DNA from: Leucoraja erinacea
Lineage: Eukaryota
NCBI RefSeq assembly: GCF_028641065.1
Contig: NC_073391.1
Span: 23,560,001 to 23,624,000, forward strand
Direction: 5' to 3'
Length of the DNA: 64,000 bases
Below are positions 12,121-41,263 of the stretch, one piece after another. Positions within the stretch are counted from its first letter, which is position 1. Each line of letters begins with the position of its first letter. Below the pieces are notes generated by a model. It searched no databases. It was given only the letters and a program-made list of their open reading frames with translations, and had not been told where the DNA came from. The position numbers were made by a program, and so were the translations under genes.

Positions 12121-12678
12121 TCTCAAGAATTAACAAACTGAAGGAAGAATTGCTATTACATTGTTTACTGTGCAATTAGTTTAGTTTAAATGGACACAAG
12201 TAATAAATCCACACCTATTGATTTCTCTTGATTCTCTTCTGAAATGGAAAGAATTTTTCCAATTATATCCCTGAATTTTCCCATAATTCTTTCCTTGTTG
12301 TCATCAACTAGCTGACAATACTGTGATGTGAAGTAGCATTTTTAACAGAACAACCAGGTTGTTTATTTATGGATTTCATTATGGGTTTTGTTTTTATTCA
12401 ACTTGCATTTGTGTAGCATCTTTGGTGTAGGCTGAAAATCCATGCAACTAGGAGGAGAATAGTAAGATTAAACGAGAACTTACCAGTTTGAAGTTTGATC
12501 TGTATTTTATGAGGAGTTACGATGAGGGATTACGTGAAGAAGCCCGCTTCCAGCGCATGCGTGTCATTCTTCAAAGCAGCGGTGTGAGGTCACAGAAAAA
12601 CTATAATGACCTAAGATAGTAAGATTATCAAAGATATACCAGTTTGTGATATGATCATTAGAGGGTGGGAGCGGAGGG

Positions 12679-12791
12679 CACGTAATCCCTCATCGTAACT
12701 CCTCATAAAATACAGATCAAACTTCAAACTGGTAAGTTCTCGTTTAATCTTACTATTTTACTTCGGAGTCACGTGAGTGACTTCGTGAAGA
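12679..12791. repeat. DIRS internal complementary region (ICR)
   Basis: 12679-12757 is the exact reverse complement of 12458-12536 (79 bp). 12755-12791 is the exact reverse complement of 17519-17555 (37 bp). The two halves overlap at ATT. Confidence 0.95.
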
Positions 12792-12966
12792 TTTCAAAGC
12801 TCTGTGACCTCATGCCGTGGAACGAGTCCATGCTTCACAACTGCCTTGGGTATTGGGAGAGAGCATCATTAGTAAGTTTAAAACACACTTATACAAAGAC
12901 TTGTGTGGTAAAAAACAAAATTAAATTTATTAATTTAAATCATAGCCCTGTATTCTTTAGGGCAAA

Positions 12967-13926
12967 TTATATAGTTGAACGTAAAATGGTTTCTGAAAAT
13001 GATGATGATGATGGCTCCAAAACTGGTTTATTATAAAACCTTTGGAATGTCCTCTCGGATGACCATCCTGCCAGTCTAAGTATCTGGTCCGTGGGCACCT
13101 CCAGCATTTTCGCTGCGGATGTTGCGGCAGCCCTGGTGGAATGAGATTTAAACACATCAGTATCTATCCCTGCCATCTTTAGGACAATTTTGAGCCACCT
13201 TGAAATAGTTTGGGTCGTGACCCTTTTGTGCGGTTTCTTGTAACTGATTAACAAGGCCATTTCCTGACCTCGTATACTGTTAGTATTTTTGATGTATAAA
13301 CGGATGTGCCTCACTATACACAGTTGTTCGTCATATGGATATGACATGAATACGATCACTTGACCCGATGAACCTGGTCTGTTTTGTTTGATTAGTTCCT
13401 GGATGATAAACACCAATTTCTCGGGTGAGGTGATCATGGAGTCCAGTCTCAATTTACTTAATGACTGGACTCTTTGAGCGGTAACAAGTGCCATAAGCAT
13501 AACCATCTTCATGGTAAGTTTCTGGAGTGACAAAGCTGTTATGGGCGACCAGCCCCTCAGCATATTGAGAACGACACCCACATCCCAGATTTCGGAGTAC
13601 CTGGTTTTAGGAGGATTTGCATTAAATATGCCCCTCATCAGTTTTATTACCAGGGGGTGTGTTCCCACCGTGTTCCGCTCCAATCCTTGTGCCAGATAAT
13701 TGGAAAGTGCACTTCTTGCACTATTGATGGCACTGTAGCCCAAACGGTTATCATGATGAAGGCTTGTTAAGAATTCCAATACAGCCGGAATGTTGTTGGC
13801 CCTCTGGTCCAAGTTGTTGCGGAAGCAGAATAAGCCCCATTTCTTTATGTGTCCAAGGTACTGCTTCCTTGTTGACAGTCTTTGAGCCGATGAGATCAGA
13901 TTCATCGTCCTGTCTGAGAGCCCCAT
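12967..13926 (-). CDS. DIRS tyrosine recombinase (ORF3), 319 aa, uninterrupted
   Basis: Catalytic set R (TAQRVQSL), HSTR (FKSHSTRAAATS), W and Y (AGWSSERTFQRFY); N-terminal SAM-like core-binding region (STRKQY...W...GYSAINSARSALS). Confidence 0.95.
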   Translation of the reverse strand: MGLSDRTMNLISSAQRLSTRKQYLGHIKKWGLFCFRNNLDQRANNIPAVLEFLTSLHHDNRLGYSAINSARSALSNYLAQGLERNTVGTHPLVIKLMRGIFNANPPKTRYSEIWDVGVVLNMLRGWSPITALSLQKLTMKMVMLMALVTAQRVQSLSKLRLDSMITSPEKLVFIIQELIKQNRPGSSGQVIVFMSYPYDEQLCIVRHIRLYIKNTNSIRGQEMALLISYKKPHKRVTTQTISRWLKIVLKMAGIDTDVFKSHSTRAAATSAAKMLEVPTDQILRLAGWSSERTFQRFYNKPVLEPSSSSFSETILRSTI

Positions 13927-13943
13927 GCCGTGTAGTGGGTCTT

Positions 13944-15869
13944 TTAGACTCTACAAATCAATAGATCCATAGTCTTATGGCATGGATGGCTATTCCCAGT
14001 TACTGGATGAATTAATAACTTTGAGCTATTTCCAATAAGGGAACATGGTTCTAATACCATCCCGTGTACCACTGAATACCACGGTTGAGTAGGCCAATCG
14101 GGTACTATGAGAATCCCAGATGCCGAGTCTTGTTGAATTTTCCTTAGTACCCGATTGATGAGGCAGAACGGGGGAAAAGCATAAAAGAGACAATTCCCCC
14201 AATGCAAAGAGAAAGCATCTGTAGCTTCTGCCCCAGGGTCTGGTTCCCAAGAAACATACCTTGGTAACTGGTGATTCAACCGAGATGCAAACAAATCAAT
14301 ATCTGGTCTGCCATATTTTGCTGTAATTTCAGCAAATATATCTTTATTTAACATCCATTCCGTGTTCTCGTTAAATTTGCGTGACCTGGTGTCTGCCACT
14401 AAATTTAGCTTACCTGGAAGGTAAGTAGCCGATATCCATATATTTCTTTGGATACACCATTGCCAAATTAAATTTGCCAATTGATCACAAGATGTCGAAA
14501 TGTTTCCACCCATGTGATTGATATATGCCACTGTGGTGGTATTATCAATTTGTAATCGTACATGCTGGTGGTTAATAGCTGAGCAATATGACTTAAGGCC
14601 ATAAAAGGCCCCTAACATTTCTAGGTAATTAATGCCACGTGAGTTAAGCAATACTGCCTCTTCTTCCTTCCATCTCCCTCCACAACTAGAAACAGAGTTA
14701 GTTGCTCCCCAACCAATGGCGCTGGCATCTGTTTGTAATACCATAGACGGGTTGTCAATAATGATGGGGTTTGAGCAATACCTAATATTATGAACCCACC
14801 ACTGTAGTTCAATGATAGCTTCCGTAGGCAGCTCCATAGGTCTATCAAAATGACCTTTATTAATTTTGAGTGCTCTAATTTTGGCTCTTTGCAAATTTTG
14901 ATAATGTAATGGCCCAAATTGTGTGGCCGGAAAAGTGGCCACAATCTTCCCAATTATTCGGGCTACCCGTCTAATGGAGGGTCTGACGGTGTTAAGAAGC
15001 ACGCTGCAATCCTCCTGCAGGGCTGCGGCTTTATCTATTGGTAAAGTTATTAACATATTGACCGTGTTAATGGTGAATCCTAAATAATCCATATTAGTTG
15101 CTGGTATCAATTTACATTTAAGTGGATGGATGGCAAACCCTAGTTGTTCAAACAATAGTTTTGTGGCGAGCACTGTTTGATATGCCAATTCATAAGTTGT
15201 GCCAACAATAAAGATGTCATCTAAATATGCCATCACCGTATGGCTTTGTTTACGTAACAATGCCAAAGCGGGTTTCAGTATTTTTGTACATAACCTAGGG
15301 GCAGATGTTAGCCCATTTGGTAAGGCTCTATATTGCCAAAGTTCCCCCATCCAGTTAAACTTCAAATACCGTCTGTGATCCCTGCTGATGGGTACTGTAT
15401 AATATGCATCTTTTAAATCAATGCTTGCCATATAGAACCCAGTTGACACTAATTCTTTAGCAGTAATAAAAGTATCCATTTTAAAGTGAATATGTTGAAC
15501 AAAAGTGTTCAATGTAGAAAGGTCAATAATAATCCTGCAACCCCCATCTTTTTTATTTCTAATAAAGATGTTAGATACAAATTCTAATTTTTCATGAACA
15601 GTATACTCAATCACACCTTTTGAGGACAATCTTTCTAGCTCCCTGTGGGCCTTAGATAGTTCCGCTTTAGCAAGGACAAAAGTCCTTTCTGGTATATGTT
15701 GTACTGGGGGTTTTTGGGGATAAATAAATTCTAATAGATAACCTTGAATACTGCTAAGAATATATGAGTCTGTAGTGATTTTACCCCATTCATAGCTATA
15801 GTATTGCAACCTCCCCCCCACCATAGTGGGTCCCTTTTTTATAGCAGAACCACACCCACCTACCTCCAT
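13944..15869 (-). CDS. DIRS pol (ORF2): reverse transcriptase, RNase H and adenine-methyltransferase-like domain, 641 aa, uninterrupted
   Basis: VGGRL..W..IT.D, KKDGGCRIIIDL, IDLKDAYY, LPNGLTSAPR and YLDD (RT); QTDASAIGWG, INYLEM, IDNTT and NLVADTRSR (RNase H); DIDLFASRLN...DAFSLHW...YAFPPF (MT-like). Confidence 0.96.
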   Translation of the reverse strand: MEVGGCGSAIKKGPTMVGGRLQYYSYEWGKITTDSYILSSIQGYLLEFIYPQKPPVQHIPERTFVLAKAELSKAHRELERLSSKGVIEYTVHEKLEFVSNIFIRNKKDGGCRIIIDLSTLNTFVQHIHFKMDTFITAKELVSTGFYMASIDLKDAYYTVPISRDHRRYLKFNWMGELWQYRALPNGLTSAPRLCTKILKPALALLRKQSHTVMAYLDDIFIVGTTYELAYQTVLATKLLFEQLGFAIHPLKCKLIPATNMDYLGFTINTVNMLITLPIDKAAALQEDCSVLLNTVRPSIRRVARIIGKIVATFPATQFGPLHYQNLQRAKIRALKINKGHFDRPMELPTEAIIELQWWVHNIRYCSNPIIIDNPSMVLQTDASAIGWGATNSVSSCGGRWKEEEAVLLNSRGINYLEMLGAFYGLKSYCSAINHQHVRLQIDNTTTVAYINHMGGNISTSCDQLANLIWQWCIQRNIWISATYLPGKLNLVADTRSRKFNENTEWMLNKDIFAEITAKYGRPDIDLFASRLNHQLPRYVSWEPDPGAEATDAFSLHWGNCLFYAFPPFCLINRVLRKIQQDSASGILIVPDWPTQPWYSVVHGMVLEPCSLIGNSSKLLIHPVTGNSHPCHKTMDLLICRV

Positions 15870-15952
15870 GGTTACTGGTGGTTTACTTATTTCTTGGGTT
15901 TCCTGAAAAAGGGGGGTTCCGGTTTGATGTCCTTGCGGGTTTGTGTGTGAGG

Positions 15953-17374
15953 TTAAGGCTTCTGTGTCTTCCAGGGTGGCCGGCCCTGGCCATATCCTAA
16001 AAAAGGCTGCGGTTGGTAATGCTGAGGTTTGACAGTGCGACTGGTGTGAGCCACATTCTTAGGTCTTGCGTGTGGCTGATACCTCGCTCCAAAATATGCC
16101 TTTGCACTGGCCTTAATGAGCCCTAGTGTTTTTGCTTCATCGTCAAGTTTTCTGACTTGTGCGGTCAAGTCCTTCCCAAATAAAAGAGTTGATGATGTGG
16201 GAAGGACTTAGTCCTTCCCAAATAAAAGAGTTGATGTATTAGCCGTTTTCTGTTTGCAGATAGGCGCATATCTGGGGTCTAGCGTTGGCTGAATGGCAGT
16301 CTTCCGCATATTATTCAATTCGTACTGCACATTGCAAAACAGAGCTAGTGCATCCTGGTGATTCTTGGTGAGCTCTGTTTTGTCCAATGTGCGGGTGTAG
16401 GCCGTGATACCTGCTGTCAGCCCCTTAAGTGCTCTCTGGATTTTGAGGTCTTGATTTCTTATGGTCCTCCCCATATGCTGCCAAATAGATTGGTTCACAG
16501 TGGGCACTTGTAACGCCTCACAATTTCCCGGTGGCAGATGTCTGGCCAGAGTTTCGGTGAATACGTCCTGTTGTAGCTTGTGGCCAGACATATAGTTGAT
16601 ACTTGCTGCCATCCGGGGATCCAAGTCTCCCCCTGTTTGACTTGGCATAAAATACGTGGCAACCATGTCCAGCAGAGTCCCTGCTGTATTTGGATCATGG
16701 GCCTCTGTATTGTCGGGCTCTGGCCCCTCAGGGTCCTGCCCACTCTCCTCCGAAGAGTCTGAGATTGGTGGGGGTCCCTCACGGGGTACCCTTATGGGGC
16801 TTGCCTGCTCACTCTGGCAAGTCTCCTTCTCGGGACTGCCACTATGAATGAGCTCCTCGAGCAGCTCCTTTAAGCGCTCTCTGTGCTGGGCTGCACTAGG
16901 CATTTTAAACTGCCCCACTTCTTGCAGGCTTTCAGCAAATTGCTCTTTCCTGGTATATCCCAGCTGCTCCCGTCCCTGGTACTCACGGGTGCTGGCTTGC
17001 GGGCTTGCTTCCTTGGGCCGCTGACCACACAGTTCCTTAGTGTGTACCCGGTCCGCGGCGTCTTTTGGGTGCTCTGTGTGCACCCATTCATAGCGGGTTA
17101 ATTGCATCCCGCGCTCCTCAGCCGCAGTGTGTTGACACGGGCTGGTCTCCCGTTGCGGAACAAAGTCGGGTTTTTCTAAATGATGCGTCTTCCTCCGAAC
17201 TTTTCCTCCCGCCCGGGCCATAGGTTTTGGTGGTGCCAGAACGGTTTCTGGCACAGCTGGTACTTCTGCCGAGGTGTCCATAGTCGGCGGCTGCTGTTCC
17301 TGCCGTTCACCGGTGTTTTCCACTCGTTTGTCGGGCAGCTTCTTTGCAGGCCGTTTTCTGGTAACTCTATCCAT
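15953..17374 (-). pseudogene. DIRS gag-like ORF1, interrupted by a stop inside a 42-bp duplication/inversion insertion
   Basis: ORFs 16208-17374 (388 aa, ends LLFGKD) and 15953-16168 (LTAQVRKLD...) are in the same frame. Removing 42 bp gives ...LLFGKDLTAQVRK..., about 459 aa, with an LFG motif as in DIRS gag. Confidence 0.8.
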
Positions 17375-17489
17375 TTTCCTAAAAATGTAAAATGTAGAGT
17401 CCTTACCTGCCTTTTGCTGGTCCTTTTGTACTCTCCCGTTACTGGGGACGTCCTCCCCCTCCTGTTTGACTCGTACAATGCGTGTAGCG

Positions 17490-17545
17490 ATATGACACGC
17501 ATGCGCTGGAAGCGGGCTTCTTCACGAAGTCACTCACGTGACTCC
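17490..17545 (-). promoter_or_regulatory. Putative internal promoter at the DIRS 5' end
   Basis: E-box GTCACGTGAG (17533-17542) and NRF1-like GCGCATGCG (within 17496-17508) at the element 5' terminus. Motif match only. Confidence 0.35.
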
Positions 17546-17703
17546 GAAGTAAAATCAGGCATCGTCACTCATGCAGCAAAGGACAGAGATTTTAGAAAAA
17601 AAGTGACATAGTTTAGTTGAAGGGACAATTTCTTAAGATGGCCTTAAAGAGGGAGAATGAGATAGAAATTTTTAGTGGCTGAGTTCCAGAATGTGGTGCT
17701 CCT

Positions 17704-19606: not shown

Positions 19607-20965
19607 TCTTATATTACTAAAAGTCTGATCTTGACCACTTCCTGTTGTTCTGTATATTGATTTTAGAAAAAATGCTGCCATTTACGGCTGTGATTTTTGG
19701 CCATCTTACTCCGAGCCCCCCTCTGCTGTGCAGGACAAGAGGATTTTTCCCATCAATGAAAAATAAAAGAGTTATTAGTGTTTAAAAAATGTTGAGATTC
19801 TCTCTCATGAAGGTCATGCACCTTCCGGGGGGACTATAAAACCCGGAAGTGTTGAGTACCTCAGTCCGTCTCTGCAAGATGGGGGAGCATGAGGGTCACG
19901 TCTCTCCATCTGAGCTGTGAATAACACTAAACATATGTCTACTAAACTGTGAGTGGTTTTACTGACCTGTCAGCGCCCTTAATGTGGTTTGAAAATATAG
20001 TTTGGAAATGCTAAAGCTGTGTTGCCTTTGCCTTTCGTTTGGAAATGCTAAAGCTGTGTTGCTTTTGGTTTGGAAATGCTAAAGCTGTGTTACCTTTGGT
20101 CTGGAAATGCTAAAGTTGCGTTGCCTTTGTTTTGTAAATGCTAAAGCTGTGTTGCCTTTGGTTTGGAAATGCCAAAGCTGTGTTGCCTTTGGTTTGGAAA
20201 TGCTAAAGCTGTGTTGCCTAATTAAAGTTGCCTTGCCTAATTAATGTTGCCTTGCCTAATTAAAGTTGCCTTGCCTTCTATATAATCAAAAGTCTAATCT
20301 TGACCACTTCCTGTTTGCGCTTTATATTGATTTTAGAAAAAACGCCACCACGTACAGCTGGGATTTTTTTGCCATACTCAGAGTCCCCCTCCGCTCATTA
20401 GATGCCGAGGATTTTTTCCCATTGATGAAAAATAAAAGAATTCTTAGTGTTTAAAAAATGTTGAGGTTCTCTTTCCTGTCAATCATGCCATGAAGGCCAC
20501 GCCCCTTCTGGGGGGAGGGTGGAGGGACTATAAAACCCAGTCTCAGCCTCTGCAAGATGGAGGGGGGAGAGGTCATGACTCGCTGTCTTTAGTGGCCTTG
20601 CATCCTGCTTGAAGTGGTAAGAAACTGCACTTGAATTTGGTGGCCTTGCACCCTGTTTGAAATGGAATTTCAAGGAACAGCAGTTTCAACTGCCAGCCCA
20701 CCAGCCGTGGGTGAGTGAGCTGCCAGCACAACAGGCTTGAGTGACTGAGCCGCCAGCTCAAAAATCCATTTGGCCCACAATGTCCATACTAGCCCTCTGG
20801 AAGCCAGTCCCTTCAGCCCACAACACCCATACTAACACTCCAGAATGCCTCCACCCCCCCCCCCACTGGCCAGCAATATTGGAATTGATGGAGAGGTGGA
20901 ATATTACGTTGGGGGACCAGCCCTCCCATGTGGTGCTGGGACCCAACGGGTCCCACTTAGTCTAG
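19607..20965 (+). mobile_element. Non-autonomous Helitron, composite, 1359 bp
   Basis: 5' TCTTATATTACTAAAAG; 3' hairpin TGGGACCC-AAC-GGGTCCCA (20937-20955) followed by CTAG (20962-20965); inserted between host A and T (cttatA|Taaac) with no TSD. Confidence 0.88.
20000..20275 (+). repeat. 31-bp minisatellite (~7 copies) plus a ~19-bp repeat inside the Helitron
   Basis: Unit ggtttggaaatgctaaagctgtgttgccttt with period 31 (20041, 20072, 20103, 20134, 20165, 20196), followed by ttgcctaattaaagttgcc repeats. Confidence 0.9.
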
Positions 20966-39505: not shown

Positions 39506-41263
39506 CTAGACCAAGTGCAGACCCGTTGGGTCTGTTTCCCCAACAGCGTTTGCAGGGGGGGGAGGGGGGCGTGATGTGTGAAGAGGGGAGGGAGGAGGAG
39601 GAAACGGGATAGATTTGGGAGGGAAAGTAGAGCGCGGTAGGGGGTGAGAGATGGGGAGAGAGATGTGGGGAAGGGGGGATGGGGAGGAGGGAGGGATGGG
39701 GGAGAGGTGGGGGGAAAGAGGGGAAAGAGTCGGGGAGGAGAGTGGAGGAGAACGGGGAGAGAAGTGGAAGAGTGGGGAGGGAGGTGGAGGGAGGGGGTAG
39801 CGGGAGTGATGGAAGAGGGACAGAGGGATAGGGGAAGGGGGTGGGGGGGGAGAGAGGGAAGGGGGTGAGGTAGACAGGGAAGGGGGGGGGGGGAGAGAGG
39901 GAGAGGGATGGGAGAGGGGTGAGGAGAGGGGGAGGAGAGAGTGGGAGAGAAGTGAAAGAGTGGGGAGGGAGGGAGGGAGGGAGGGGTAGAGGGGTAGCGG
40001 GAGTGGTAGAAGAGGGATGGGGGAGTGGTGGAAGAGGGACAGAGGGGTAGGGGATGGGGTGGGGGAGAGAGGGGAAGGGAGGGAAAGAGAGAGGGGGGGG
40101 GGGGGAGAGGCGTGAGGTAAGGGGGATAGAAGTGGAAGAGTGGGGGGGAGGGGTAGGGGGAGTGGTGAAAGAGGGACAGAGGGGTAGGGGGAAGGGGGTG
40201 GTGGTAGCGAGGGAAGGGGGTGGGGGAGAGAGAGATGGGTGGGAGAGGGAGAGGGGTGGGGAGAGGGAAACATAGAAATTAAGTGCAGGAGTAGGCCATT
40301 CGGACCTTTGAGCCTGCACCACCATTCAATATGATCATGGCTGATCATCCAACTCAGTATCCTGTACCTGCCTTCTCTCCATACCCCCTGATCCCTTTAG
40401 CCACACGGGCCACATCTAACTCCCTCTTAAATATAGCCAATGAACTGGCCTCAACTACCCTCTGTGGCAGAGAGTTCCAGAGACTCACCACTATCTGTGT
40501 GAAAAATGTTTTCCTCATCTCAGTATTAAAGAATTTCCCCTTTATCCTTAAACCGTGTCCCGCTTGTCCTGGACTTCCCCAACATCGGGAACAATCTTCC
40601 TGCATCAGACAAATGCAATTCAGGACTTTTCACTTCACAAGCAAAGTCAGAATGACAGTTAGTGAAGAATTTGAATAATCGCTGAGCGTTCTCTATGGCA
40701 ACACTGTATTTGAGCATTGGGCATTATGACATCACACGATGGAACGTTCACCAGGGGCTGGGCTCCTGCAAAGGCATATGTAAATGAATCCATTCCGATT
40801 GGCCATCTGTGAGCATTGGGCATTGTGACATCACACGATGGAACATTCACCAGGGGGCTGGGGCTGGGGCTGGGGCTGCTTCTATTGGTGAGAAGCCTGT
40901 TTATTTTTGAAATATTGTGGTGGGGTGGGGGTGAAGGATTTGATTAAAAAAGTGTACTTAAACATGACGAAATGTAATGAGGAGCGGATACTTAGAAAGA
41001 AAAGCGAAATCTCTACCGAAATGGAAAAGACGTCGGCGATTCTGCGTCCGGTTTCGGAGTTGCGGTGAATCAAAGGAAGAAACGCGGCCGGAAGCCGTAC
41101 ATGCAAATGGATCCATTCCGATTGGACGTCCGCAAGCGTCGGGCATCGCGATTGGACGTCCGCGAGCATCGGGCATTGTGACATCGCACGGCGGGAACGA
41201 ATCGAAAGGCAGGAAGGGATCCGTACGGCAGGTGGTCGGATGGGGCGAGAGTTTTAAAAGTAT
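39506..41263 (-). mobile_element. Non-autonomous Helitron A, containing a purine-rich tract and a CR1 tail
   Basis: Minus-strand 3' end CAGACCC-AAC-GGGTCTG hairpin then cacttggtCTAG|T (CTAG 39506-39509); 5' region (T)ATACTTTTAAAACTCTC at ~41263. Confidence 0.75.
39554..40267 (+). repeat. ~700-bp polypurine (G/A) low-complexity tract
   Basis: Predominantly G and A with many G3-G10 runs and loosely repeated units (ggggtagcgggagtg, ggaagagtggggag). Confidence 0.9.

Follow-up and report, generated by a model that had tools for sequence, protein, structure and literature searches.

Within a 64,000-nucleotide (nt) stretch of the genome of the skate Leucoraja erinacea (NCBI RefSeq assembly GCF_028641065.1, contig NC_073391.1, positions 23,560,001 to 23,624,000 of the forward strand; hereafter the window, in whose numbering all positions are given), the minus strand carries a DIRS1-like element with a gag-like open reading frame (ORF), a pol frame and a tyrosine recombinase (YR) frame. 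Comparison with related sequences leads us to favour, with reasonable rather than strong confidence, a scheme in which ribosomes would slip by one base (-1) near the gag end to make Pol, and YR would come from an RNA lacking a 1913-nt intron that spans nearly all of pol. Specifically, unspliced RNA would serve as the genome and as the messenger for Gag and, after slippage at the heptamer T TTT TTA (16004-15998), for Gag-Pol, while RNA spliced from a donor within pol, D2 (15864/15863), to an acceptor at the pol end, A2 (13951/13950), would again give Gag and, after the same slip, a fusion of Gag, a transframe segment and the recombinase. In skate families, an ATG lies two codons before D2 and 17-20 nt past the gag stop, and restart of translation there may yield free Pol or free recombinase. 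An original prediction, made from the window copy, had proposed instead that a single donor upstream of gag (D1) is spliced to two acceptors, A1 for Pol and A2 for YR. Its view that YR likely needs splicing stands, and the acceptor that it found is the one adopted here; its route to Pol is wrong and its main donor is probably wrong. That prediction overlooked three sites, namely the heptamer, D2 and, at 17379 before gag, the acceptor-like A0.

A probable frameshift site in place of a pol acceptor

Three sets of relatives were compared with the window copy. A family search, in which 29 of 12166 candidates were scored, gave at least 29 other loci in the skate genome at 85-98% identity. The genome searched (G000) codes for a protein identical in every letter to one that NCBI assigns to Leucoraja erinacea. 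Twenty divergent skate copies were fetched from families at 70-77% nt identity, and their denominators below vary with the region that each copy holds. Metagenome contigs were scanned as well and yielded 80 loci, grouped into 49 clusters, from relatives at 39-55% amino acid (aa) identity; the pol start was accessible to analysis in 31 of the 49, the other 18 being set aside since the motif could not be placed or the contig start lay too near.

The heptamer lies 135 nt ahead of the pol ATG (15869), and the pol frame of the window copy is open from the heptamer onward. This is the arrangement of a -1 frameshift cassette, that is, an X XXY YYZ heptamer that is in phase with the ORF before it and is followed by an open -1 frame. 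The heptamer is in the right phase in 29/29 family copies, with the pol frame open from there to the ATG in 26/29, and it is present in 17 of the 18 divergent skate copies holding the region, where its spacing to the ATG is 114-141 nt and always a multiple of 3. Among the 31 metagenomic clusters, TTTTTTA occurs 15 times in the 300 nt that precede the GGRL motif, every time in the pol phase; four other clusters have AAAAAAC, another known slippery heptamer, one has TTTTTTT, and in four gag and pol are joined in one frame. In 4 of the 15 clusters the base following the heptamer is T, so an AG acceptor alone does not explain the site.

The window element is a gag-broken copy and hence misleading about the layout of the ORFs. 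In intact sister copies, gag comprises 481 codons and runs through A1 to a stop reached at 15887, overlapping a pol frame that is already open at 16004. Two private changes truncate gag of the window copy, a 42-nt insertion (~16195-16236; stop at 16208) and a stop at 15955-15953. The insertion, absent from all 28 other loci covering this position, consists of a directly duplicated segment whose two copies flank an inverted piece, which is suggestive of a template switch. The earlier statement that the three ORFs do not overlap is correct only when they are counted from ATG to stop, and it fails for the gag of intact sisters, which overlaps the open pol frame. The spacers from gag stop to pol ATG and from pol stop to YR ATG are both 17 nt in the window family. 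At a further locus (L073:2470-2600), gag is deleted and the leader is fused ~10 nt before the pol ATG, away from the splice sites.

A1 (CCCCCCTTTTTCAG/G, the slash here and below marking the cut) is present at 15903/15902, 33 nt ahead of ATG 15869 and with an open leader, and on crude scores it ranks 1st of 162 YAG sites in the window copy, which made it a reasonable choice. Because gag of intact sisters continues to 15887, the sequence of A1 is that of its codons P-P-F-F-R. The YAG is retained at 18 of 29 family loci, the rest reading TTCAAG (8) or TTTGAG (1) or lacking an AG (2), and the stretch from heptamer to ATG in other skate families holds no site that matches the pyrimidine score of A1 (54 rows, corresponding to 49 distinct places). 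With this loss within the family and absence from other skate families, A1 does not qualify as a conserved pol acceptor. We consider it likely that Pol is made by -1 frameshifting at T TTT TTA rather than via splicing at A1.

A probable, conserved acceptor for the recombinase and a candidate donor within pol

A2 (TATTGATTTGTAG/A) is present at 13951/13950, 24 nt ahead of the YR ATG (13926) and with an open leader. All 20 divergent skate copies have TGYAG at this place, the TAG within it ends the upstream YR frame in most of them, and a homologous TGCAG is found in metagenomic relatives of the same clade. The YR ATG is present in only 6 of 17 divergent skate copies and absent from the other 11, and the K-x-P-L codons between A2 and this ATG show silent changes only. 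Because A2 is kept, the ATG mostly lost and the intervening codons changed synonymously, YR would start at A2 and not at ATG 13926, and the earlier proposal that YR needs a spliced RNA entering at 13950 is most likely right.

D2 (GAG/GTAGGT) has been lost from just one of 29 family copies (28 retain it) and is present in 18 of 19 divergent skate copies. Its codons GAG GTA GGT are fixed in skate copies, whereas the VGG motif downstream has varied codons. In the metagenomic clusters, the best donor within 150 nt before GGRL is in phase 0 in 27/31 cases compared with 75/245 control windows inside pol, and a donor score of at least 4 together with phase 0 is found in 24/31 clusters versus 2/245 control windows. 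In this region of the relatives, the residues and the distance to GGRL vary, whereas the donor consensus is constant; many homologous Pol proteins read E-V-S, K-V-S or E-V-G at the place of D2, which is the translation of a phase-0 donor. D2 and A2 are thus conserved GT-AG sites of matching phase, as expected for an optional intron, and enclose nearly all of pol. We suggest that A2, which is well supported, has its best partner in D2 rather than in D1. A design with D1 as the only donor does not agree with the lack of a 5' donor in most distant relatives or with the phase 2 of exon 1 in a family without the YR ATG. In three relatives with gag and pol in one frame (L146, L148 and L195), two donors lie 5 nt apart before pol, in phase 1 and phase 0; such pairs could act as a switch, giving either Gag by itself or Gag fused to the recombinase.

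Acceptor position and the length of the pol/YR overlap

The pol end was open to analysis in 43 of the metagenomic clusters, of which 33 show a long overlap, defined as a YR frame open for at least 150 nt upstream, and 10 a short one. An AG directly after F-P-P-F, ~220 nt upstream and in the phase that enters YR, is found in 30/33 long-overlap versus 0/10 short-overlap clusters, while the terminal acceptor is a YAG in 3/33 long-overlap and 7/10 short-overlap clusters (TGCAG in the seven). The serine of F-P-P-F-S is encoded by AGY in 29 cases and by TCN in 2; elsewhere in pol, AGY accounts for 253 of 1027 serines (25%). The window copy and the skate copies read F-P-P-F-C and have the terminal site. 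How long the overlap is would depend on where the acceptor sits, which is in the F-P-P-F-S codons in long-overlap elements and in the terminal C-R codons in the clade of the window element.

On balance, if only slightly, we lean towards the view that animal DIRS1 elements share one code. Gag-Pol would arise by a -1 frameshift, and the same frameshift would give Gag-recombinase once pol has been spliced out as an optional intron; the long overlap would be the stretch from acceptor to pol stop, which would have shrunk in the clade of the window element when the acceptor moved ~220 nt downstream, and in skate families a 5' donor and a pre-gag acceptor, 22-61 nt apart, would be additions that form a further layer of splicing.

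The 5' donor and acceptor-like pre-gag site of skate elements

D1 (CAG/GTAAGG), on which the original prediction centred, is present at 17407/17406, 32 nt before the gag ATG, and the ATG at 17502 lies 96 nt away in phase 0. On crude scores it ranks 1st of 221 GT sites in the window copy and is the strongest donor of the element. It is found in 26 of 27 covering family copies and as CAG/GTAAG in other skate families, confirming its conservation among skate elements. Of 26 metagenomic clusters scanned, several of them with broken gag frames, 2 have a donor in the 100 nt that precede the gag ATG, and on this count D1 is ruled out as a general feature of DIRS elements. Phase 0 between ATG 17502 and D1 holds in the window copy, in most family copies and, for two other families, in several members; it does not hold in the family lacking the YR ATG, in which the distance is 92 nt (phase 2) in 7/8 copies. 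This variation in phase among families rules out the exon-1 peptide as a constant N-terminus.

The YAG of A0 is retained while the surrounding sequence varies, and the spacing from D1 to A0 is 22-61 nt across skate copies. Such a spacing is below the usual minimum for vertebrate introns, so D1 and A0 may work with other partners. At locus L002 (G000:C5:31945799-31946745), an insertion of ~0.9 kb ends in TTTCTAT repeats exactly at D1, with the exon-1 end and GT upstream.

RNA reads and genomic traces of spliced RNA

Raw reads of four RNA runs were mapped on the window and of four on L062, a copy of a larger family (7 distinct runs; 3-25% of each run). Depth near D2 on L062 was ~9-56, and most reads were less than 95% alike and lay on both strands. 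These reads probably derive from passive transcription of old copies, and nothing in them points to expression of a young element, making the test for splice joints a weak one. Neither of the junctions predicted originally, 17407^15902 and 17407^13950, was among the joints listed for these seven partly read runs, whose reads, as said, resemble background. A few reads link the internal complementary region (ICR) or the right terminus to the left terminus (L062:5768 to 1202; window 12521 to 17518), which is probably the result of mapping among the repeated termini of related families. Loose read ends at window positions 17518 and 12541 suggest that one or more additional DIRS families exist whose likeness to this one is limited to the first 37 nt of the left terminus.

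A tight pattern count over the genome gave 53 exon-1 ends of the window family, all unspliced; no retro-spliced copy after D1 was found beside them with a pattern that is blind to D1-A0 products where the next exon starts with GT. Two related families likewise gave none, with three GC point mutants beside 73 unspliced ends, and the largest family gave none beside 178, the pattern here being blind to joins at the heptamer AG. Missing retro-spliced copies are weak evidence because spliced RNA need not be copied. L086, a candidate splice junction, turned out to be a short deletion.

Weighing the routes to Pol and the recombinase

Several observations weigh against the combination of a frameshift for Pol and a D2-A2 intron for YR. 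No clear stimulator of frameshifting was found: z is ~ -0.1 in the window, hairpins fold in skate copies but not beyond shuffles, and the trend in 20 relatives is weak (mean z -1.1 versus -0.35 upstream). Seven of the 31 clusters show neither a heptamer nor a fused frame, and 5 of the 43 have neither acceptor. The elements with a terminal acceptor form one clade (SH-aLRT 99 in a quick tree from which L196 was excluded and in which the alignment columns of the acceptor trait itself were kept), so the acceptor switch counts as a single event and not as independent trials. The donor scores, taken from a weight matrix, are crude. No splice joint at D1, A0, A1, D2 or A2 was among the joints listed for the 7 RNA runs on the window and L062, and none of 34 non-GT sites after D2, beside at least 638 GT sites, is retro-spliced (32 of the 34 were read in context; the other two begin with GG and GC). 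Finally, the skate-specific D1/A0 pair and the conserved ATG 15869 are left unexplained.

In a mixed scheme, the frameshift and D2-A2 splicing would be accompanied by a skate-specific use of D1, joined either with A2 or with the heptamer's own AG (TTTTTTAG/G); translation of the resulting subgenomic RNAs would begin at ATG 15869 and yield Pol or Met-Glu-YR. D1 and this ATG (17/19 divergent copies) are both conserved in skates and not general outside them, and the heptamer of skate copies is followed by G and has 10/14 pyrimidines as an acceptor; yet RNA support is absent, the phase of exon 1 varies, and A0 as a conserved acceptor shortly past D1 offers another partner or role. We regard this scheme as unlikely. 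The original prediction, in which D1 is spliced to A1 and to A2 and exon 1 is translated from ATG 17502, appears very improbable. All of its sites are present and in frame in the window copy, its donor is both strong and skate-conserved, and the exon-1 phase is as required in most window-family copies and several of two other families; against this, A1 is lost in 11/29 copies, one of which has all three frames open, and is not found in other families, exon 1 is in phase 2 in the family that has no YR ATG, D1 is mostly absent in distant relatives, and neither RNA joints nor a retro-spliced copy accompany the 53, 73 and 178 unspliced exon-1 ends. Translation of all three ORFs from one unspliced RNA by stop and restart, each ATG lying 17 nt past the preceding stop, would account for the two equal spacers of the window family and for the lack of joints, but it is hard to reconcile with the absence of the YR ATG from 11/17 divergent copies and the coding behaviour of the codons ahead of it, and leaves the phase-locked donors and the acceptor switch in relatives unexplained; we think it very improbable. 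We give least credence to production of YR via a second -1 frameshift at the pol end or from a promoter inside pol. In most relatives, the YR frame is indeed -1 to pol, but the 7-nt overlap in the window has no slippery site and an in-phase heptamer lies within the overlap in only 10/44 clusters, at scattered positions, and on these grounds a second frameshift into YR is ruled out.

Anatomy of the element and its surroundings

The element is a genuine member of the DIRS1-like group as defined in the passages of PMC3266345 used here. Its inverted terminal repeats (17558-17492 versus 12500-12567) are 87% identical by self-BLAST, and the two halves of the ICR, each 100% identical to its terminus, share the 3-nt junction AAT (12757-12755). 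In Pfam, the pol frame matches RVT_1 (E 1.6e-18) and, under the Pfam cut-off, Dam (E 0.002); no RNase H match was listed for the pol frame, no protease domain was found in it, and homologues exist along its whole length. We count this as the group's reverse transcriptase (RT)/RNase H (RH) and methyltransferase (MT) protein. The YR frame matches Phage_integrase (E 2.4e-10). For the gag-like ORF1 no Pfam family reached the cut-off, although the 481-aa ORF sits where it is expected. Coordinates are collected in Table 1.

Table 1 Features of the DIRS1-like element, in window positions (slashes mark predicted cuts)
Feature	Position	Strand	Remarks
Whole DIRS1-like element	12458..17556	minus	5099 bp; ATT at both termini; ends agree in alignment with 29 other loci
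Left inverted terminal repeat	17492..17556	minus	87% to right repeat (self-BLAST); contains ATG 17502
Weak donor-like CAC/GTGAGT	17537, within left inverted terminal repeat	minus	Donor score
Donor D1, CAG/GTAAGG	17401..17409	minus	Donor of the original prediction; conserved in skate families only
Acceptor-like A0 (pyrimidine tract and YAG)	17379..17395	minus	Just before gag ATG, 28 nt past D1
ORF1 (gag-like)	15887..17374	minus	481 aa in intact sister copies; broken in window copy
Slippery heptamer T TTT TTA	15998..16004	minus	Gag phase (P-F-L-G); -1 slip leads to pol frame (F-F-R-I-W-P)
Pol frame	13944..16004	minus	45-codon transframe segment, ATG 15869, RT, RNase H region, methyltransferase-like end
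A1, pol acceptor of the original prediction	15903..15916	minus	Within last gag codons P-P-F-F-R; probably not functional
Donor D2, GAG/GTAGGT	15858..15866 (cut 15864/15863)	minus	Phase 0 in pol, two codons past ATG 15869
Acceptor A2, TTGTAG/A	13951..13965	minus	Pol C-R codons; TAG closes YR frame upstream
YR frame	12967..13950	minus	327 codons counted from A2; ATG 13926 not conserved
ICR	12679..12791	minus	37 nt to left terminus, 79 nt to right; self-BLAST
Right inverted terminal repeat and extension	12458..12567	minus	Self-BLAST

Elsewhere in the genome, locus L009 (G000:C1:141912425-141919550) holds nested or tandem pieces of elements, with one copy inserted close to the YR start of another. 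Around the element, the window has a long purine-rich simple region (39555-40253), a 31-nt tandem repeat (19997-20244) and many dispersed repeats of 60-250 nt, several of them resembling families of short or long interspersed nuclear elements (SINE/LINE).

Comparison with known systems

The skate element has the common features of DIRS1-like elements given in the relevant passages of PMC3266345 and PMC9210276, namely three ORFs (gag-like; RT/RH/MT; YR), inverted terminal repeats, a two-part ICR with a 3-nt junction, ATT termini and a length of ~5.1 kb. The original prediction took the lack of a long pol/YR overlap as unusual; according to the portion of PMC3266345 consulted, half of the 28 described elements have a short overlap or none, as here. 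The passages of these two papers describe overlaps and no route to Pol or YR; the frameshift, the internal donor and the movable acceptor are proposed here. No statement on native splicing or frameshifting in DIRS elements was found in the excerpts making up the literature searched, with the founding DIRS papers, Repbase and supplements outside its scope, and these excerpts leave open how ORF2 and ORF3 are translated and why the overlap varies by family. The scheme of a gag-end frameshift and a D2-A2 intron names exact sites and predicts that the true N-termini are those of Gag fusions rather than of first-ATG proteins, and it would account for recombinase ORFs without a start codon; if it is true, the annotation of abundant vertebrate and invertebrate DIRS elements would be corrected. 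The pre-gag acceptor A0 also fits the inference made in the cited part of PMC4495291 that DIRS1 gag, captured twice in mammalian genes, came with an acceptor of its own.

In Dictyostelium, DIRS-1 shares the ICR-dependent replication, and the sections of PMC7192593 and PMC5633606 drawn on here report full-length and shorter mRNAs in RNA interference (RNAi) mutants, as well as an RT that can act in trans, so that a gag-broken copy such as that in the window could be copied. Its ORF2/ORF3 overlap is extensive, unlike that of the skate element, and the splicing described in those sections is that of an engineered marker intron. The skate heptamer is the same as that of HIV-1 gag-pol (U UUU UUA followed by a stem-loop, as given in the part of PMC4373837 used), in the same phase, with a G-rich next codon and a short transframe stretch before the enzymes. 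The skate element differs in that it has no demonstrable conserved stem-loop and no protease domain found in pol, and it is not a retrovirus. Retroviruses and long terminal repeat (LTR) retrotransposons make spliced subgenomic RNAs, as for env, foamy-virus pol and copia gag. The likeness is that unspliced RNA is both genome and mRNA and that optional removal of an intron with pol inside it gives access to a product that is shorter or encoded further downstream. In the skate element, by contrast, the spliced product would be the integrating enzyme itself, fused to Gag via the frameshift, and the donor would lie after gag rather than before it.

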